Of a stretch of 64,000 bases of DNA, positions 3 through 54,090 are shown in pieces. The stretch's first letter is position 1; each line of letters opens with the position of its first letter. This DNA is from Bacteroidales bacterium (GTDB taxonomy: Bacteria; Bacteroidota; Bacteroidia; Bacteroidales; UBA3663). Position numbers and translations under genes: made by a program. Location: NCBI GenBank assembly GCA_045628525.1, contig JAZQPJ010000034.1, positions 4,061 through 68,060 on the forward strand, read 5' to 3'. A model generated the notes under the pieces. That model searched no databases. It saw only the letters and a program-made list of their open reading frames with translations, and was not told the origin of the DNA.

Positions 3-1634
3 CTGGCTCCTGTGACGTGGGAACTCATTGAACCTGTGGAGGGAAAGTACGATTTCTCTTCGCTTGACAATATCATCCAGGAGGCGCGACGGAACGACCT
101 GAAGGTGGTGGTGCTGTGGTTCGGCGCATGGAAGAACTCGATGAGCTGCTATGCGCCCGAGTGGTTCAAACGCGACGTGAAGCGTTTCCCTCGTGTGCAT
201 GATCGCAACGGCCTGCCGATGGAGGAGGCCTCTTCGCTCTCGGCCAATGTGCTGGAGGCGGACAAGCGTGTGTTCTGCCAGATCATGCAGCACATCAGGG
301 AGGTGGACAGCGAGGAGCAGACCATCGTGATGGTGCAGGTGGAGAATGAGATAGGCATGATCAAGGAGCCGCGGGACTACAGCAAGGATGCGACGAAGAT
401 GTATGAGAGCCAGGTGCCGAAGGAGCTGACAGAGTATCTGCTAAGTTTGAAGGGTTTGAAGGGTTCGAAGGGTTCGAAGGGTTTGAAGGGTTCGAAAGAT
501 CCGAATGGTTCAAAGGTTACTCTCAAACCCCTCAAACCTTTCAAACCCCTCAAGCTTAATAATCCTCGCTTAGAGATCTCGACCGACAAGGGCAGCTGGG
601 CAGAGCTCTTTGGCAACGACATGTATGCCGAGGAGATCTTCCAGGCATGGACCTATGCCGTCTATGTGGAGGAACTTGCCAAGGCGGGCAAGGCCATCTA
701 TGACCTGCCGATGTATGTGAATGTGGCGCTCAACAGCCGTGGCCGTAAGCCTGGCGAATACCCTTCGGCCGGCCCTTTGGCGCACCTCATCGACATCTGG
801 CATTGTGGCGCACCAAGCATCGCTGTCCTCGGCCTTGACCTCTACGACAAGGGTTATCGCGACTGGACGGCTAAGTATCATCTGCCTAACAATCCGCTCT
901 TTATCCCGGAAATCCGTCTCGAAGATCAGGATGCCATGCGTGCGCTCTATGCCTTCGGTCATCATGACGCGATGGGCTTCTGCCCGTTCTCGATCGAGGA
1001 TTATCCGCTGTATCTTAACTCTTCAAACTCCTCAAACTCTTCAAACTCCTCAAACTCCCTCGACCTCTCACTCGATGATCAGCTGAACGCGTTTTCTTCT
1101 AATAGTTCATCCCTTTCGCCTTTGGCAGCATCTTATAAATTGCTAAGACAAGCCGAGCCCTTGATCCTCGCACACCAAGGCACCGACGACATGGATGCCG
1201 TTATCCTCGACAACGACATGCGCGAAGCTGATATCCGTACGCCTGACGGCATCACCCTGCACGTAAAGCACAGCTACTCACTTGGTTGGGAGCCAGGCGC
1301 GCAATCGGACACTTGGCCGGAAGCTGCCTGCATCATCGTCCGTCAGGGCAAGGAGGATTATGTCGTGATCGGGTCGGGCGTGGTCATAACTTATGAGAAG
1401 AGTATGGAGGGGTTGAGGGGTTTGAAGGGTTCGAAAGGTTTGAGAGGTTCGAAGGGTTTGAGGGGTTCGAATGTTCAGATCGGCCTTGCCAAGTGCGAGC
1501 AAGTAGAATATGACAAGGATGGCAACATGCAGATCATCCGTCACCTGAGTGGCGATCAGACGCACCAGGGCCGTCACGTCCGCATCCCGGTAGGAGAGTA
1601 CGCGATCCAGCACTTCCGCCTTTACGAATACTAA
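3..1634 (+). CDS. Glycoside hydrolase, clan GH-A beta-galactosidase-like (GH35/42-type catalytic region with DUF5597-like C-terminal part); 5' end cut by the window edge
   Basis: The frame is open to the window start. It contains WELIEPVEGKYDFSSLD, VVLWFGAWKN and the catalytic-type VQVENEIG motif. Three repeat insertions interrupt it in frame. Confidence 0.6.
   Translation: MAPVTWELIEPVEGKYDFSSLDNIIQEARRNDLKVVVLWFGAWKNSMSCYAPEWFKRDVKRFPRVHDRNGLPMEEASSLSANVLEADKRVFCQIMQHIREVDSEEQTIVMVQVENEIGMIKEPRDYSKDATKMYESQVPKELTEYLLSLKGLKGSKGSKGLKGSKDPNGSKVTLKPLKPFKPLKLNNPRLEISTDKGSWAELFGNDMYAEEIFQAWTYAVYVEELAKAGKAIYDLPMYVNVALNSRGRKPGEYPSAGPLAHLIDIWHCGAPSIAVLGLDLYDKGYRDWTAKYHLPNNPLFIPEIRLEDQDAMRALYAFGHHDAMGFCPFSIEDYPLYLNSSNSSNSSNSSNSLDLSLDDQLNAFSSNSSSLSPLAASYKLLRQAEPLILAHQGTDDMDAVILDNDMREADIRTPDGITLHVKHSYSLGWEPGAQSDTWPEAACIIVRQGKEDYVVIGSGVVITYEKSMEGLRGLKGSKGLRGSKGLRGSNVQIGLAKCEQVEYDKDGNMQIIRHLSGDQTHQGRHVRIPVGEYAIQHFRLYEY
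445..557. repeat. Intragenic self-complementary element: six GTTYGAAGG 9-mers, a 23-bp centre, then four CTCAAACCY-type 9-mers (reverse complement of the left arm)
   Basis: Direct reading of the sequence. Period 9 keeps the frame, and it translates as SLKGLKGSKGSKGLKGSKDPNGSKVTLKPLKPFKPLKL. Confidence 0.85.
1019..1063. repeat. Intragenic 9-bp tandem repeat CTCYTCAAA x4-5 (C-strand orientation of the TTYGARG family)
   Basis: Direct reading; translates as NSSNSSNSSNSSNS. Confidence 0.85.
1407..1472. repeat. Intragenic 9-bp tandem repeat GARRGGTTY x7 (G-strand orientation), the inverted partner of 1019-1063
   Basis: Direct reading; translates as EGLRGLKGSKGLRGSKGLRGSN. Positions 1429-1446 are identical to 26459-26476. 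Confidence 0.85.
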
Positions 1635-4570: not shown

Positions 4571-6253
4571 TTACTTGTTCACAGCAGCTTCTGCCTGCAC
4601 CACATTGATCGCATAGTCGCCTATCTTCTCGCATTCGGCAATGAAGTCGTTGAAGAAGGCGCCGAGGCGGTAGCTGTACTTGCCCTCGTTCACGGCGATG
4701 AGGTTCTCCTCGCGGCTGATGGTGCGCAGGGAGTTGATCTCGTTTTCTGCCTCGATGTTGTCGCGCAGATTGATTACCACGTGTTCAGGGTCGGTGATCA
4801 CCTGACGCATCTCATGCAGGGCGCGCTCGGTGAGGTCGAGCATCTGGGTCATCTGCATCTTCTGGTAGTCGGTGAAGTCGCTCGGCTCATTCTCACGCTT
4901 GCGCTGCAGGGTACGGCCGAGGTGGAACATCGAGTCTCCGATCGACTCCAGCTCGTCCACCTGTCGCAGCATCTGGGCGATGTGGTTCTTCGAGTAAGCC
5001 GAGAGCCTGCCCTCCGACACCTTGCGCAGGTAGCCGGCAATCTCCACCTCCATGTTGTCGGTGATCTGCTCGTAGTGTTCCAGTCGCTTGTATTCCTCGG
5101 CAAAGTCGCTCTCCTTCTTGGCCGAAAGGGCGCGGTTCACCATGTCGAGCATCTTCTGGCAACGCTCGGCCATGACACCCACCTCGTTGCGTGCCTGCAG
5201 GATGGAGAGCTCGGCCGTAGAGAGCAAGCCGCCGCTGATGTAGCGCAGACGTGTCTCCTCCTGCGTCTCCTTCTGAGGCAGCACGCGGCACACCAGCTGC
5301 TCAATCTGCTTGACGAAGCCAATCAATAACAAGGTGTTGAATACGTTGAATGCCGTGTGGAAGGCCGAGAGCTTGAAGAGGTCGTTGTTGCCAGCGCCCA
5401 TCACATGCTCCACGAACCATGACACGCCGTTGCAGAACGGATAGAACATCAGGAGCACCACCACCACGCCGAACACATTGAAGAACATGTGCGCGAGTGC
5501 CGCGCGTCGTGCCTGCGTGTTGGCGGTCAGGGAGGCGATGAATGCCGTGATCGTCGTACCGATGTTCTGACCCATGGCCAAAGCCGCTGCCTGCTCAAGG
5601 CCGAAGCCGGGGATCTGCATGTCGAACAGCATCAACGTGATGGCCATCGTGGCGGCCGATGCCTGAACGAGCATGGTAACCAATGCACCCACTACCACGA
5701 AAAGCAAGATTGTGAGGAAACCGCCATCGGCCACGCCTGCCAGCATCTGTGCCACCAGTTCGCCGATGTTCAGATCGGTGGCCGATTGCTGCAGGAAACT
5801 CAAGCCCATGAACAGGAACGAGAAGCCGAAGATGAACTCGCCGATCGACTTGCGATGCGAATTGCTGCTGAAGATGAGCGGAATGCCAAAGGCAAGCAAC
5901 GGCAACGCCAGGGCGGCGATATTGACCTTGAAACCGACAGCCGAGATGATCCATGCCGTCACCGTGGTGCCCACATTGGCACCCATGATCACGCCGATGG
6001 CTTGTGCCAGCGTCATCAATCCGGCATTGACAAACGAAACGACCATCACCGTGGTGGCCGAAGAGGATTGGATCAAGGCGGTCACGGCAATGCCCGTGAG
6101 AACACCCATCACACGATTGCGCGTCATGGCAGCCAGGATGCTGCGCAGACGATCGCCAGCAAATTTCTCAAGACCCTCGCTCATCGTCTTCATGCCGAAG
6201 AGGAAGAGTGCCAGGGATCCGATCAGGGAGAGGAGATTCAGAATTGTATCCAT
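4571..6253 (-). CDS. Na+/phosphate cotransporter family protein (NptA/YjbB type) with a C-terminal PhoU-like helical domain
   Basis: Duplicated Na_Pi_cotrans motifs (QSSSATTVMVVSF, GANVGTTVTAW; GQNIGTTITAF) and a long helical C-terminal half. Confidence 0.9.
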   Translation of the reverse strand: MDTILNLLSLIGSLALFLFGMKTMSEGLEKFAGDRLRSILAAMTRNRVMGVLTGIAVTALIQSSSATTVMVVSFVNAGLMTLAQAIGVIMGANVGTTVTAWIISAVGFKVNIAALALPLLAFGIPLIFSSNSHRKSIGEFIFGFSFLFMGLSFLQQSATDLNIGELVAQMLAGVADGGFLTILLFVVVGALVTMLVQASAATMAITLMLFDMQIPGFGLEQAAALAMGQNIGTTITAFIASLTANTQARRAALAHMFFNVFGVVVVLLMFYPFCNGVSWFVEHVMGAGNNDLFKLSAFHTAFNVFNTLLLIGFVKQIEQLVCRVLPQKETQEETRLRYISGGLLSTAELSILQARNEVGVMAERCQKMLDMVNRALSAKKESDFAEEYKRLEHYEQITDNMEVEIAGYLRKVSEGRLSAYSKNHIAQMLRQVDELESIGDSMFHLGRTLQRKRENEPSDFTDYQKMQMTQMLDLTERALHEMRQVITDPEHVVINLRDNIEAENEINSLRTISREENLIAVNEGKYSYRLGAFFNDFIAECEKIGDYAINVVQAEAAVNK

Positions 6254-6255
6254 AT

Positions 6256-6302
6256 TTTCAAATTACAGATTACAGATTTCAGATTACGAATTACAAATTA
6301 CG
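6256..6302. repeat. Heptamer tandem repeat (GTAATYT/GAAATCT x6-7 on the gene strand) filling the 5' leader of nptA
   Basis: The gene strand reads CGTAATTTGTAATTCGTAATCTGAAATCTGTAATCTGTAATTTGAAAAT-ATG. The 18-mer at 6256-6273 is identical to 57896-57913. Confidence 0.85.
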
Positions 6303-14874: not shown

Positions 14875-15160
14875 TGCAATAGTCCGACTTGGATCTGAGT
14901 CGGACTATTGCAGATCTGCAAAAGCATGTCGCAAGACAGAATATGTAATTGTAAATCTGCAGCAGTCCGACCTGGATCCAAGTCGGACTGCTGCGGCTCT
15001 TCAATAGTCCGACTTGATACCGTGTCGGACTGTCGCGCGTTTGCAATAGTCCGACTTGGTACCGTGTCGGACTGTCGCACGTTTGCAATAGTCCGACTTG
15101 GGTTCAGGTCGGACTGTCGCGCGTTTGCATTAGTCCGACTTGGGTTCAGGTCGGACTTTT
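14875..15160. repeat. Array of six palindromic units (AGTCCGAC-N10-GTCGGACT); the last four are in exact 42-bp register
   Basis: Left half-sites at 14881, 14964, 15006, 15048, 15090 and 15132. A conserved 16-bp linker GTCGCRCGTTTGCAAT separates units; the first two stems extend to 13-14 bp. Confidence 0.9.
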
Positions 15161-17004: not shown

Positions 17005-17038
17005 TTTGATAAGATTTATGATGTTAGTGGATGATTGT

Positions 17039-17079
17039 TTCGAGGTTTCGATAATTCGAGGTTTCGATGCTTCGAGGGG
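17039..17079. repeat. 16-bp tandem repeat TTCGAGGTTTCGATRM x2.5 in the LacI-SDR spacer
   Basis: Direct reading; related to the TTYGARG family. Confidence 0.8.
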
Positions 17080-26455: not shown

Positions 26456-26541
26456 AGAGTTCGAAAGGTTTGAGAGATTTGAAAAGTATGTATTTGATAA
26501 CACTCTCGAACATTTCGAACTTCTCAAACTCTCAGATTCAA
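26456..26541. repeat. Intergenic palindromic element of the TTYGARG family, exactly filling the proS-pnuC spacer
   Basis: The left arm GTTCGAAAGGTTTGAGAGATTTGAAAAG faces the right arm CTCTCGAACATTTCGAACTTCTCAAACTCTCAGATTCAAA. The 18-mer at 26459-26476 is identical to 1429-1446. Confidence 0.85.
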
Positions 26542-27333: not shown

Positions 27334-27337
27334 ATCT

Positions 27338-27345
27338 TACCTTTG
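27338..27345 (+). promoter_or_regulatory. -7 promoter box (TACCTTTG) for hisB
   Basis: Matches TAnnTTTG about 22 nt upstream of ATG 27367. Confidence 0.45.
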
Positions 27346-27366
27346 TGTAATTTTAATTTCATAGAT

Positions 27367-28575
27367 ATGAAAAAGTGTCTCTTCATAGATCGTGACGGCA
27401 CGCTGGTTGTTGAACCGCCCATCACCGAGCAGATTGACAGCTTCGAGCAGGTCGAGTTCCTGCCGCGTGTCATCCAGAACCTCTCGTTCATCCGCCATAC
27501 GCTCGATTATGACTTCATCATCGTGAGCAATCAGGATGGCTTGGGCACGCCTGCCAATCCGTTGAAGCGATTCAAGCAGATCAACGACTTCATCTTCCGT
27601 GTGTTCCACACCGAGGGCGTTGATTTTGAGGCGATGCACTTCGATGAGCATTACCCGGACGATTTCCATCCCAACCGCAAGCCAGAGACAGGTATGCTCA
27701 CCAAGTACATCGAGGGAAGCAAACCTGCTAAGGAAGGGGAGGAGCCAGAATATGACCTGGTCAACAGCTTTGTGATCGGCGATCGCCTGACCGATATTGA
27801 GCTCGCCAAGAATCTCGGTTGCAAGGGAATCCTTCTGGCGCAGAATGGCACGGTAGATGAGTGCCGCGAGTGGCTGCAGGAGTCGAACCTCACCGAGCAT
27901 TGTGCGCTCATCGCTGCCGATTGGGATGCGATTGCTGCCTTCCTCTTTGCTGGCGAGCGTCGTGCCGAAGTGACACGCACCACGAAAGAAACCGACATCC
28001 ACATCACCATCGACCTCGACGGAACAGGTCGCACCCAGATCTCTACGGGCCTTGGTTTCTTCGATCACATGCTCGAGCAGATTGGCAAGCACAGCGGCAT
28101 GGACCTGACCATTCAGGTAAAGGGCGACCTTAACGTCGATGAGCATCACACCATCGAGGACACAGGCATCGCGCTGGGTGAGTGCATCGCCAAGGCATTG
28201 GGAAACAAGCGCGGCATCGGCCGCTATGGTTTCTGTCTGCCTATGGACGATTGCCTCTGCACAGTGGAGACAGATTTCGGTCATGCCTCTGAGACCAAAA
28301 CACAGGTAGCGCTCGACTTCGGAGGCCGTCCTTGGCTCGTGTGGGATGCAGAGTTTCATCGCGAGAAGGTGGGCGACATGCCTACCGAGATGTTCCTGCA
28401 CTTCTTCAAGTCGTTTGCTGACAGCGCCCGCATCAACCTCAACATCAAGGCTGAGGGCGAGAATGAGCATCACAAGATTGAGGGTATCTTCAAGGCTCTG
28501 GCTCGTAGCCTCCAGATGGCCATTCGTCGCGACATCCATCACTTCCAGCTTCCATCGAGCAAGGGTGTGCTCTGA
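27367..28575 (+). CDS. hisB: Bifunctional histidinol-phosphatase / imidazoleglycerol-phosphate dehydratase
   Basis: HAD motif FIDRDGTL at the N-terminus; IGPD motifs HHTIED and [10 protein letters not shown]. Confidence 0.95.
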
Positions 28576-28632
28576 TGTGCCTCATCAGGTGCTATGTAGA
28601 TTCAGTATTTATTATTCTCAAAACAAACAGCA

Positions 28633-39737: not shown

Positions 39738-39975
39738 GTTCTTCGATTCGAGACGTCGAAAAGCATGTCCGGAATCTTGGCGAAGGAATTCGAGTTGTCG
39801 AATAGTTTGTCCGGACCTTGTGACAAGGAATTCGAGCCGTCGAAAAGGCTGTCTGGATTCTTGGACAAGGAATTCGAGCCGTCGAAGAGCCTATCCGAAA
39901 CCTCAGACAAAGATTTCGAGCCGTCGAAAAGCATGTCATAGAACTCTGGCAAAGATTTCGAGACGTCGAACTCTA
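39738..39975. repeat. Tandem array of about 5.6 units in exact 42-bp register (ATTCGAGCCGTCGAAAAGSMTGTCYGGAWYCTTGGMCAAGGA)
   Basis: TTCGAG anchors at 39747, 39789, 39831, 39873, 39915 and 39957. Each unit carries TTCGA-N4-TCGAA and CCTTG/CAAGG mini-palindromes. Confidence 0.9.
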
Positions 39976-53652: not shown

Positions 53653-54090
53653 AGCGGTGGCATGTCGAAAGAGATGGAAAAAGCGCTGAAAATGTGCTGA
53701 AAGTTCGCAAATCCATTAGGAATGCCTCTGCAAGTGTGCGGAAGGGCGGAAAATGATTTTTTGCGGCTCAGCAGATCTGCGGAGGGTTTCCAAAAGTTTT
53801 TTTTGCGGCTCCGCACGTTTGCGAAAGCTCTACAAAAAGTTTTTCTGTGACTCTGCAAATCTGCGGAAGCTCTCCAAAAGTTTTTCCAAGGCTCAGCAAA
53901 CTGTCGGAGCTCAGAAAATGTTTTAGCGAAGGTTTTGCAGGTTTGCAGAGGCATTCCTAAAGATTTTGTGTCCGCTCCGCATGTTTGCATCACCTTTTCG
54001 ATGCGATTTGCAGATTCAGTGCGAGCTCGCATCACCTTTTCGATGCGATTTGCAGATTCAATGCAAGTTCGCGTCACTTTTCCTGATGCT
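53653..54090. repeat. Degenerate tandem array of about 10 units holding a 40-42-bp register; the last 2.5 units are near-identical (GCATCACCTTTTCGATGCGATTTGCAGATTCARTGCRAGYTC)
   Basis: Unit anchors at 53695, 53737, 53778, 53820, 53862, 53904, 53944 and 53986/53987, then 54029 and 54071. The final unit runs into the 3' end of the DUF2851 gene. Confidence 0.8.

Follow-up and report, generated by a model that had tools for sequence, protein, structure and literature searches.

Cyanobacterial STRR heptamers are dispersed repeats similar to the nonamer arrays, (GGTTYGARR)n, that are the subject of this work. These arrays were found in a 64,000-nucleotide stretch of the genome of a Bacteroidales bacterium (GenBank assembly GCA_045628525.1, contig JAZQPJ010000034.1; the whole stretch is hereafter called the window), where two of them face each other at positions 445-557 inside a glycoside hydrolase gene. 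Of the classes described, the one closest to them comprises the G-rich heptamers GGGAATC of Xanthomonas and GGGGAYT of Nostoc, dispersed repeats that occupy about 200 sites per genome with 2 to 26 units each (Rehm et al. 2015, PMC4692102). Close species differ in the number of copies at a conserved site, and Xanthomonas carries 70 to 75 convergent inverted pairs per genome; the repeats adjoin the ends of open reading frames (ORFs), within which they are underrepresented, while their function and mode of spread are unknown (PMC4692102).

A second class, the TAACTGA heptamer direct repeats, occurs in Beggiatoaceae, cyanobacteria, and some Bacteroidetes (MacGregor 2015, PMC4679880). These arrays lie mostly beside start codons, show a patchy spread across phyla, and have been proposed to act in translational regulation; occasional copies within ORFs fall in peripheral parts of the protein, and there are relatives with the same gene neighborhood but no repeats (PMC4679880). 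The nonamer arrays share with them a single short unit in tandem at many loci, cross-phylum patchiness, and the lack of a known mechanism of spread. Unlike GGTTYGARR, the TAACTGA unit has stop codons in all forward frames, is essentially intergenic, is not G rich, and rarely forms inverted pairs, and nothing in our data points to translational regulation.

A preliminary description of the window, made from the sequence alone, likened the segment at 445-557 to Rickettsia palindromic elements (RPEs) and knew of no equivalent in Bacteroidales. None is indeed described for Bacteroidales or for 9-mers, but the heptamer class is a described relative (PMC4692102). Literature searches on the repeat sequence itself, on nonamer arrays, and on in-frame repeats of Prevotella or Bacteroidetes found nothing specific, and no paper in the library searched gives this repeat or reports comparable nonamer arrays. 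The segment is best explained as repetitive sequence at the DNA level and not as a protein motif or a transposon. Probably, it is a convergent pair of dispersed nonamer simple-sequence-repeat arrays, a G-rich array followed by its complement, and its classification as a dispersed simple-sequence repeat is very likely correct. What is new here is a frame-neutral repeat unit that often lies in coding sequence and writes variable tripeptide loops into enzymes.

The hairpin, its host gene, and the empty sites

The host ORF, of 543 codons, extends past the window's 5' end. Pfam identifies a DUF5597 domain (1.7e-27) and Glyco_hydro_42/35 matches in its product, which has more than 6,000 homologues and whose relatives in the PDB include 8z47, 3u7v, and 4d1i. 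The gene holds three sites with nonamer arrays, the flagged hairpin being the first, and a fourth site is intergenic:

3 to 1634, plus strand: gene for a GH35-type beta-galactosidase with a C-terminal DUF5597 domain; 5' end cut by the window; three arrays
445 to 516, plus strand: G-rich arm of the flagged hairpin; eight units in the GGTTYGARR register, six good and two degenerate; translated LKGLKGSKGSKGLKGSKDPNGSK
517 to 521, strand not applicable: short centre or loop between the arms
520 to 557, minus strand: C-rich arm; four GGTTYGARR units; sense-strand reading LKPLKPFKPLKL, in a rarely used frame
1017 to 1061 (1017 to 1058 by repeat listing), minus strand: second array of the host gene; about five AGTTTGARG units; translated SNSSNSSNSSNS
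1397 to 1472, plus strand: third array of the host gene; seven to eight G-rich units; translated GLRGLKGSKGLRGSKGLRGS
26458 to 26530: intergenic hairpin; G-arm 26458 to 26484, centre, C-arm 26503 to 26530

The preliminary description had seen six 9-mers facing four complementary ones, and the sequence agrees: five of the six at 445-498 are exact GTTYGAAGG, the sixth being GTTCGAAAG, and the four at 522-557 (CTCAAACCC, CTCAAACCT, TTCAAACCC, and CTCAAGCTT) comprise two exact and two degenerate units. The centre of 23 bp given there has to be shortened. Tandem Repeats Finder extends the G-rich array to position 516 (8.0 copies, the final two degenerate), and because the supposed centre holds two degenerate units, the true loop is about 5 nucleotides (nt). 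The peptide predicted from read-through is identical to the ORF translation. A period of 9 is frame neutral, as had been stated, but the total length is not: 445-557 measures 113 nt, which does not divide by 3. Compared with the empty site, the insertion adds a net 96 nt (32 amino acids) rather than 113, since it took the place of about 12 nt of target sequence. The two further arrays of the host gene and the intergenic hairpin had been overlooked. Throughout the window, a two-unit pattern with up to two mismatches has 21 matches, against 0.07 expected.

The predicted RNA fold of 436-566 is a single long imperfect hairpin, as anticipated, with a free energy of -53.8 kcal/mol (mean of shuffled sequences, -32.7; z = -5.65; none of 200 shuffles equally stable); DNA parameters give -24.1 kcal/mol. 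A fold this stable might be a functional nucleic acid structure under selection, a hairpin and/or a G-quadruplex (G4), which pauses the ribosome or RNA polymerase in the gene, stabilizes the mRNA, or terminates transcription at intergenic copies. The segment 452-481 does fit the canonical quadruplex motif G3N6 x 4, and ViennaRNA run with its G-quadruplex option does not prefer the G4. Against a selected structure, the arms are unequal (eight versus four units), whole-unit changes occur without compensation in the other arm, nearly all orthologues function without the insert, neither hairpin of the window has a terminator-like T tail in terminator and promoter scans, and the whole window has no Rfam match at gathering thresholds. 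We consider such a function very improbable; evidence from gene ends is weighed below.

Orthologues were compared using the best 120 listed of the more than 6,000 homologues. In 119 of these 120 the flagged insert is missing, so that no conserved linker occupies the position, and only P0001 (contig L001; 96% amino acid and 91% nucleotide identity to the window) carries tripeptide arrays. P0001 has all three, shorter by 18, 9, and 27 nt, that is, by two, one, and three whole units at sites 1, 2, and 3, whereas P0002 (90% amino acid and 84% nucleotide identity) has none. The spacing between conserved anchors, in residues, reflects this:

Window: site 1, 82; site 2, 22; site 3, 30
P0001: site 1, 76; site 2, 19; site 3, 21
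P0002: site 1, 50; site 2, 17; site 3, 10
Modal value: site 1, 54; site 2, 17; site 3, 17

The insertion originated in the lineage that this genome shares with its closest relative, and in the other orthologues listed the site is short and repeat free. The arrays change by whole 9-nt units between close relatives, much as the Xanthomonas and Nostoc heptamers differ in copy number between close relatives at a conserved site. The empty sequence at site 1 is TATCTTATAAAGAACAAGAAAACGCTCAATAAC; the filled/empty alignment at this site reveals no target site duplication, and the ancestor has CTCAA at the right junction. The other empty sites also resemble part of the unit, with GCTTCGAAT at site 2 and GTCAAATG at site 3 in the ancestor. 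The second array stands in place of a conserved NDWxxM segment of the orthologues.

The intergenic hairpin tells the same story. It begins 10 nt past the stop codon of proS (prolyl-tRNA synthetase, ProRS), upstream of pnuC, and folds with -30.3 kcal/mol (z = -3.8). Four relatives with 89 to 96% ProRS identity retain the proS-pnuC synteny, lack the hairpin, and have a spacer of 12 to 61 nt of unrelated sequence. By ProRS comparison, the closest named relatives are MAGs (metagenome-assembled genomes) labelled "Bacteroidales bacterium", with Muribaculaceae at about 78% identity. We rejected an assembly artefact: an independent ENA assembly shows these arrays at the corresponding sites, and a cultured isolate also carries arrays.

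In an AlphaFold2 model of the array-bearing orthologue P0001 (mean pLDDT, i.e., predicted local distance difference test score, of 73.7), the three arrays match three of the four segments with a pLDDT below 50 (228-253, 408-436, and 539-547; the fourth has three residues only), and all of them sit between regular elements of the GH35 fold. The flagged insert thus falls in a low-confidence loop of the modelled orthologue, the preliminary description having suggested modelling to see whether it maps to a surface loop, and disorder is predicted for all three inserted loops. The array is tolerated because its unit equals three codons, five of the six frames are free of stops, and the site is such a loop. 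We view the hairpin in the host gene as a passenger that has no functional part in the enzyme.

Distribution, polarity, and structure of the arrays

A genome scan with one genome per species and three exact units required found (GGTTYGARR)n arrays in at least 116 stretches, often on several contigs of one genome. Among the matches listed, carriers are chiefly MAGs of rumen or gut Bacteroidales and Prevotellaceae, joined by Saprospiraceae, Chitinophagales, Lentimicrobiaceae, Paludibacter, and Acidobacteriota, and they include a cultured isolate, Prevotella sp. P3-122. A census of the loci found comprises 181 arrays of 3 to 23 units, most of them in a single orientation. In the genome of the window, where the preliminary description had suggested a search, the word recurs on both strands, and the same family fills other coding and intergenic sites there as well as hundreds in other Bacteroidota and Acidobacteriota. 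In having one short unit, head to tail, at many loci (four sites in the window and the stretches and arrays just counted), the family resembles the Xanthomonas and Nostoc heptamers; it is unlike them in its quasi-palindromic TTYGAA core and in its taxa, Bacteroidota and Acidobacteriota. A phage origin was dismissed, since 2.9 million viral contigs contain no hairpins and only four arrays.

Unit flavors differ between lineages. The base at position 5 of the unit is C at 98% in Acidobacteriota and T at 95% in Saprospiria and Chitinophagia, whereas rumen Bacteroidales have a mixture of T (65%) and C (34%). The Acidobacteriota MAGs (L011, L014, L023, L026, L039, L047, L056, L061, L074, L088, and L104) nearly always show the GGTTCGARR flavor, and their arrays include long convergent hairpins, with 20 and 15 units in L104. 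Arrays of GGTTYGARR often abut other short-unit arrays (L007, L009, L018, L029, L042, L048, L052, and L114), among whose units are GGGGTTAAGA, GGTTCTGAAG, CCCCCAATC, TCCCGATAT, GGTAAAAT, and CACGACTK. Variants of 10 nt shift the frame in genes, and all three C-sense frames still remain open, for example in L052. Four contigs of a MAG labelled Citrobacter freundii (L010, L059, L063, and L103) carry GGTTTGAGA-type arrays with AT-rich flanks, a possible sign of faulty binning or of a repeat family unrelated to this one.

Among the inverted pairs at the genome loci, from which alone the ratio is drawn, about 10 independent pairs are convergent and none is divergent; the G-rich array always lies 5' of the C-rich one, the same polarity as in the Xanthomonas and Nostoc heptamers. 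For the divergent form, 241 million metagenome records were scanned with five matches. Four of these are ordinary perfect single-unit stems, and the fifth, L126, has a few further G-rich units beyond its 3' arm.

The array structure also bears on the proposed RPE architecture. According to this explanation, the segment would be a selfish element, a discrete palindromic piece of mobile DNA of the RPE type or of the MITE type (miniature inverted-repeat transposable element), which transposes in frame into genes. The insert does share with RPEs, which are read through in housekeeping and metabolic genes, a palindromic, in-frame sequence of about 100 to 150 nt that is missing from orthologues and compatible with the fold (PMC10969869), and a multicopy family of hairpin-forming segments with presence/absence polymorphism at coding and intergenic sites and an in-frame insertion in a loop is what a selfish element would leave. 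RPEs, however, fall into separate sequence families that measure about 150 bp and encode a conserved peptide each, whereas here only the 9-nt unit is shared and most copies are nonpalindromic. The copies have no fixed ends: their size ranges over the whole span of the census, arrays begin or end in every one of the nine unit phases, the hairpin centres bear no relation to one another, and no peptide is conserved, five frames being used. Terminal inverted repeats are absent apart from the tandem units themselves, and target bases were replaced rather than duplicated. We therefore hold a selfish element to be quite unlikely, the RPE comparison of the preliminary description is not borne out, and the likeness to RPEs is a functional analogy only, between in-frame palindromic passengers.

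Other small, multicopy, hairpin-forming noncoding repeats that usually lie near gene ends, namely MITEs and the REP (repetitive extragenic palindromic) sequences with their bacterial interspersed mosaic elements (BIMEs), are similar in these general traits. MITEs have terminal inverted repeats, a target site duplication, and a fixed size, none of which is seen here. REPs are units of 20 to 40 nt with GTAG or CGTC tags that are mobilized by REP-associated tyrosine transposases (RAYTs) (PMC3733652). Unlike REPs and BIMEs, the arrays have no tag, consist of tandem 9-mers, and are in many copies intragenic. The absence of a discrete element with defined ends thus argues against an RPE, a MITE, or a REP.

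Gene context and reading frames

Gene context was assigned by our own codon-usage gene caller, trained on genes of the window, with a Pfam check on eight genes. Stricter context thresholds had placed 12 of 96 arrays in genes, which we judged to be undercalling, and they were replaced by this caller. In the window, near-full-length antisense ORFs accompany many genes (e.g., at 27334-28581, with 413 and 414 amino acids on opposite strands), and for this reason ORF length alone is unusable for gene calling there. By our calls, 39 of 88 arrays (about 44%) are intragenic in rumen or gut Bacteroidales; the corresponding fractions are 4/35 in Saprospiria and Chitinophagia, 3/20 in Acidobacteriota, and 0/10 in a third group, and the intragenic arrays of these other groups use the same frames. 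Pfam confirms all eight host proteins tested, which are GH2, GH31, GH43, and two GH78 enzymes, a hybrid two-component sensor, a BadF-type activase, and a DUF5107/TPR protein. The intragenic share in rumen and gut Bacteroidales sets the arrays apart from the Xanthomonas and Nostoc heptamers, as does the 9-nt unit, which keeps the frame at any copy number.

Frame use among the 39 intragenic arrays is strongly skewed: SN[PLS] is read in 22, G[LS][KR] in 9, T[PSL]Q in 5, [LF][KE]P in 2, FE[GR] in 1, and the stop-containing frame in none. Several arrays share orthologous sites in different species, and when the likely orthologous pairs are collapsed the numbers become about 16, 8, 4, 2, 1, and 0. 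The C-arm of the flagged hairpin is in the rare LKP frame, presumably since the G-arm and the centre dictate its frame.

A preference for hydrophilic tripeptides of this strength could be taken as adaptation at the protein level, with a flexible or collagen-like G-X-Y linker selected as a peptide and the DNA palindrome being incidental. The G-arm indeed reads as G-X-Y triplets and has a weak Pfam Collagen match. This match scores 20.5 bits, below the cutoff of 27.2, and the inserts are predicted to be disordered. Moreover, one and the same DNA word is translated in five frames and in either orientation, and outside the rumen Bacteroidales most of its copies are intergenic; the DNA unit is conserved while the peptides vary, which is the opposite of the pattern expected from peptide selection, and the frame skew itself is expected from purifying selection on a DNA-level insertion. 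Selection for a peptide is accordingly hardly credible as the source of the arrays.

Two GH78 orthologues illustrate how such sites change. The GH78 gene of L084 contains a second in-gene hairpin (L084:1620-1799), and because its G-arm is a perfect 18-nt higher-order repeat, this arm suggests recent expansion. The L082 orthologue, 88.7% identical, has no GGTTYGARR array there and carries GAGTACTCR-type 9-mers instead (about 4840-4930). In both proteins, the site is interdomain. The contrast implies that repeat families turn over at a permissive site. At two sites, L082 and L084 differ by three units.

Phase variation requires frame-shifting units or altered promoter spacing, in a surface or virulence gene. 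The arrays resemble the repeats of contingency loci in being tandem repeats of changing copy number, here presumably through slippage. Unlike in those loci, a 9-nt unit cannot switch the frame, the unit differences between relatives keep it, and the hosts are ordinary metabolic enzymes.

Intergenic arrays, by the same gene calls, lie near ORFs on the 5' side of the G strand, as the Xanthomonas and Nostoc heptamers do, which puts them upstream of an ORF on the antisense strand or past its stop on the sense strand. Within 50 nt of an array, 25 gene boundaries (13 starts and 12 stops) are found on this side versus 12 on the 3' side, and the median distance to a gene boundary is 30 versus 136 nt. 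That intergenic arrays hug gene ends strand specifically, like the G4-forming heptamers, and that arrays persist at orthologous sites across species, would suit the selected structure considered above. It is countered by the substitution of a different repeat family at one orthologous site and by the quadruplex motif itself, whose canonical form fits only 66 of the 181 arrays (36%); this apparently partial G4 capacity would be another difference from the heptamers.

Other repeats of the window and the origin of the arrays

Further short-unit arrays in the window belong to different families:

6256 to 6301: (ATTACAG)n 7-mer family, directly upstream of a minus-strand gene start
12354 to 12376: (ATTACAG)n 7-mer copy, in frame in a porin gene; read NKLQITDY
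13457 to 13483: (ATTACAG)n 7-mer copy, in frame in a phosphate transporter gene; read NYRLQITDY
17037 to 17077: 8-mer array of about five GTTTCGAG-like units, immediately upstream of where a minus-strand short-chain dehydrogenase gene probably starts
10750 to 10882: tandem repeat of 33-nt period, CGGTAATAATGGCGGTAATGTCGGTAAAAGTGG, 3.7 copies with 95% matches, within or beside ORF 9597-11081
14964 to 15157, 39746 to 39970, 53757 to 53912, and 53987 to 54082: four arrays of 42-nt period with differing units, apparently intergenic

The copy in the phosphate transporter gene is missing from orthologues that are 94% identical, and the ancestor has GATTAT at the site; at the porin copy, a relative has a nonrepetitive stretch of the same length. 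Each 42-nt unit at 14964-15157 holds an inverted repeat (AGTCCGAC...GTCGGACT). The window contains no tRNA genes with which a link to the tRNA T-arm word GGTTCGAA could be sought. Counting four nonamer and three heptamer sites, the window has about seven array sites in 64 kb, whereas 49 kb from relatives (L002 and L128-L132; 84 to 96% identity) have no 9-mer or 7-mer arrays. The repeat load of the window genome looks like a lineage-specific burst.

For the origin of the arrays we propose a scheme for which we see equal grounds for belief and doubt. (i) At targets that already resemble part of the unit, new arrays would be seeded, either by slippage or because an existing array is copied with microhomology as the primer. 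(ii) The arrays would then grow and shrink through replication slippage. (iii) Copying of the G-rich strand with a strand switch or a fold-back would supply the inverted arm. (iv) Selection would later purge insertions in unsuitable frames or places. The partial units at empty sites, the heptamer array at GATTAT, the L082/L084 pair, the abutting families, and the array-free relatives together suggest lineage-specific bursts, seeding at microhomology, slippage, and turnover at permissive sites.

The same burst is compatible with an active, sequence-specific generator, a repair or synthesis pathway at work in particular lineages. Acting on breaks or stalled forks and primed by microhomology, it would extend 3' ends with G-rich repeats; candidates would be telomere-healing-like repair or a reverse transcriptase or polymerase that uses a short template. 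The convergent architecture would result when two ends so extended, or a single folded-back one, are joined by way of the palindromic TTCGAA core. The strict convergent polarity, also found in Xanthomonas, the lineage-specific unit flavors, the contrast between the window and its array-free relatives, and the target bases lost at the junction fit such an activity; the palindromic core would let two G-rich tails anneal, and the G-arm can fold on itself by computation. No candidate enzyme was identified, unrelated families of 7-, 8-, 9-, and 10-nt units coexist in the same genomes, which speaks against a single fixed template, and slippage with template switching accounts for the same facts without a new enzyme. 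We rate a generator as rather unlikely; if real, it would be a bacterial counterpart of telomere-type healing and would equip genes with new peptide loops.

Several points weigh against dispersed repeats that spread by seeding and slippage. The dispersal mechanism was not directly observed, and the case for microhomology rests on four to five filled/empty comparisons in which short matches are possible by chance. Function, rather than the way the arrays arose, could account for the strict convergent polarity, and the share of arrays fitting the canonical quadruplex makes the parallel with the G4-forming heptamers incomplete. One unit is common to two distant phyla without explanation. Three of the four nonamer array sites of the window fall within one 1.6-kb gene, a clustering that a random passenger model does not predict, and gene context outside the window depends on a simple caller with only the eight genes checked by Pfam.

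Since the cyanobacterial heptamers were described, there has been no explanation of how identical short tandem repeats reach hundreds of separate places in one bacterial genome. Copies that lie between genes are difficult material, as their flanks cannot be aligned between species. With arrays inside conserved enzymes, the question of spread becomes testable: a 9-nt family in such genes allows exact filled/empty comparisons of junctions, lost bases, and proto-units, and frame usage serves as a readout of selection. The arrays probably break metagenome assemblies, and as low-complexity segments they are able to mislead annotation and structure prediction. For the rumen and gut Bacteroidales themselves, they give carbohydrate-active enzymes variable, disordered tripeptide loops.

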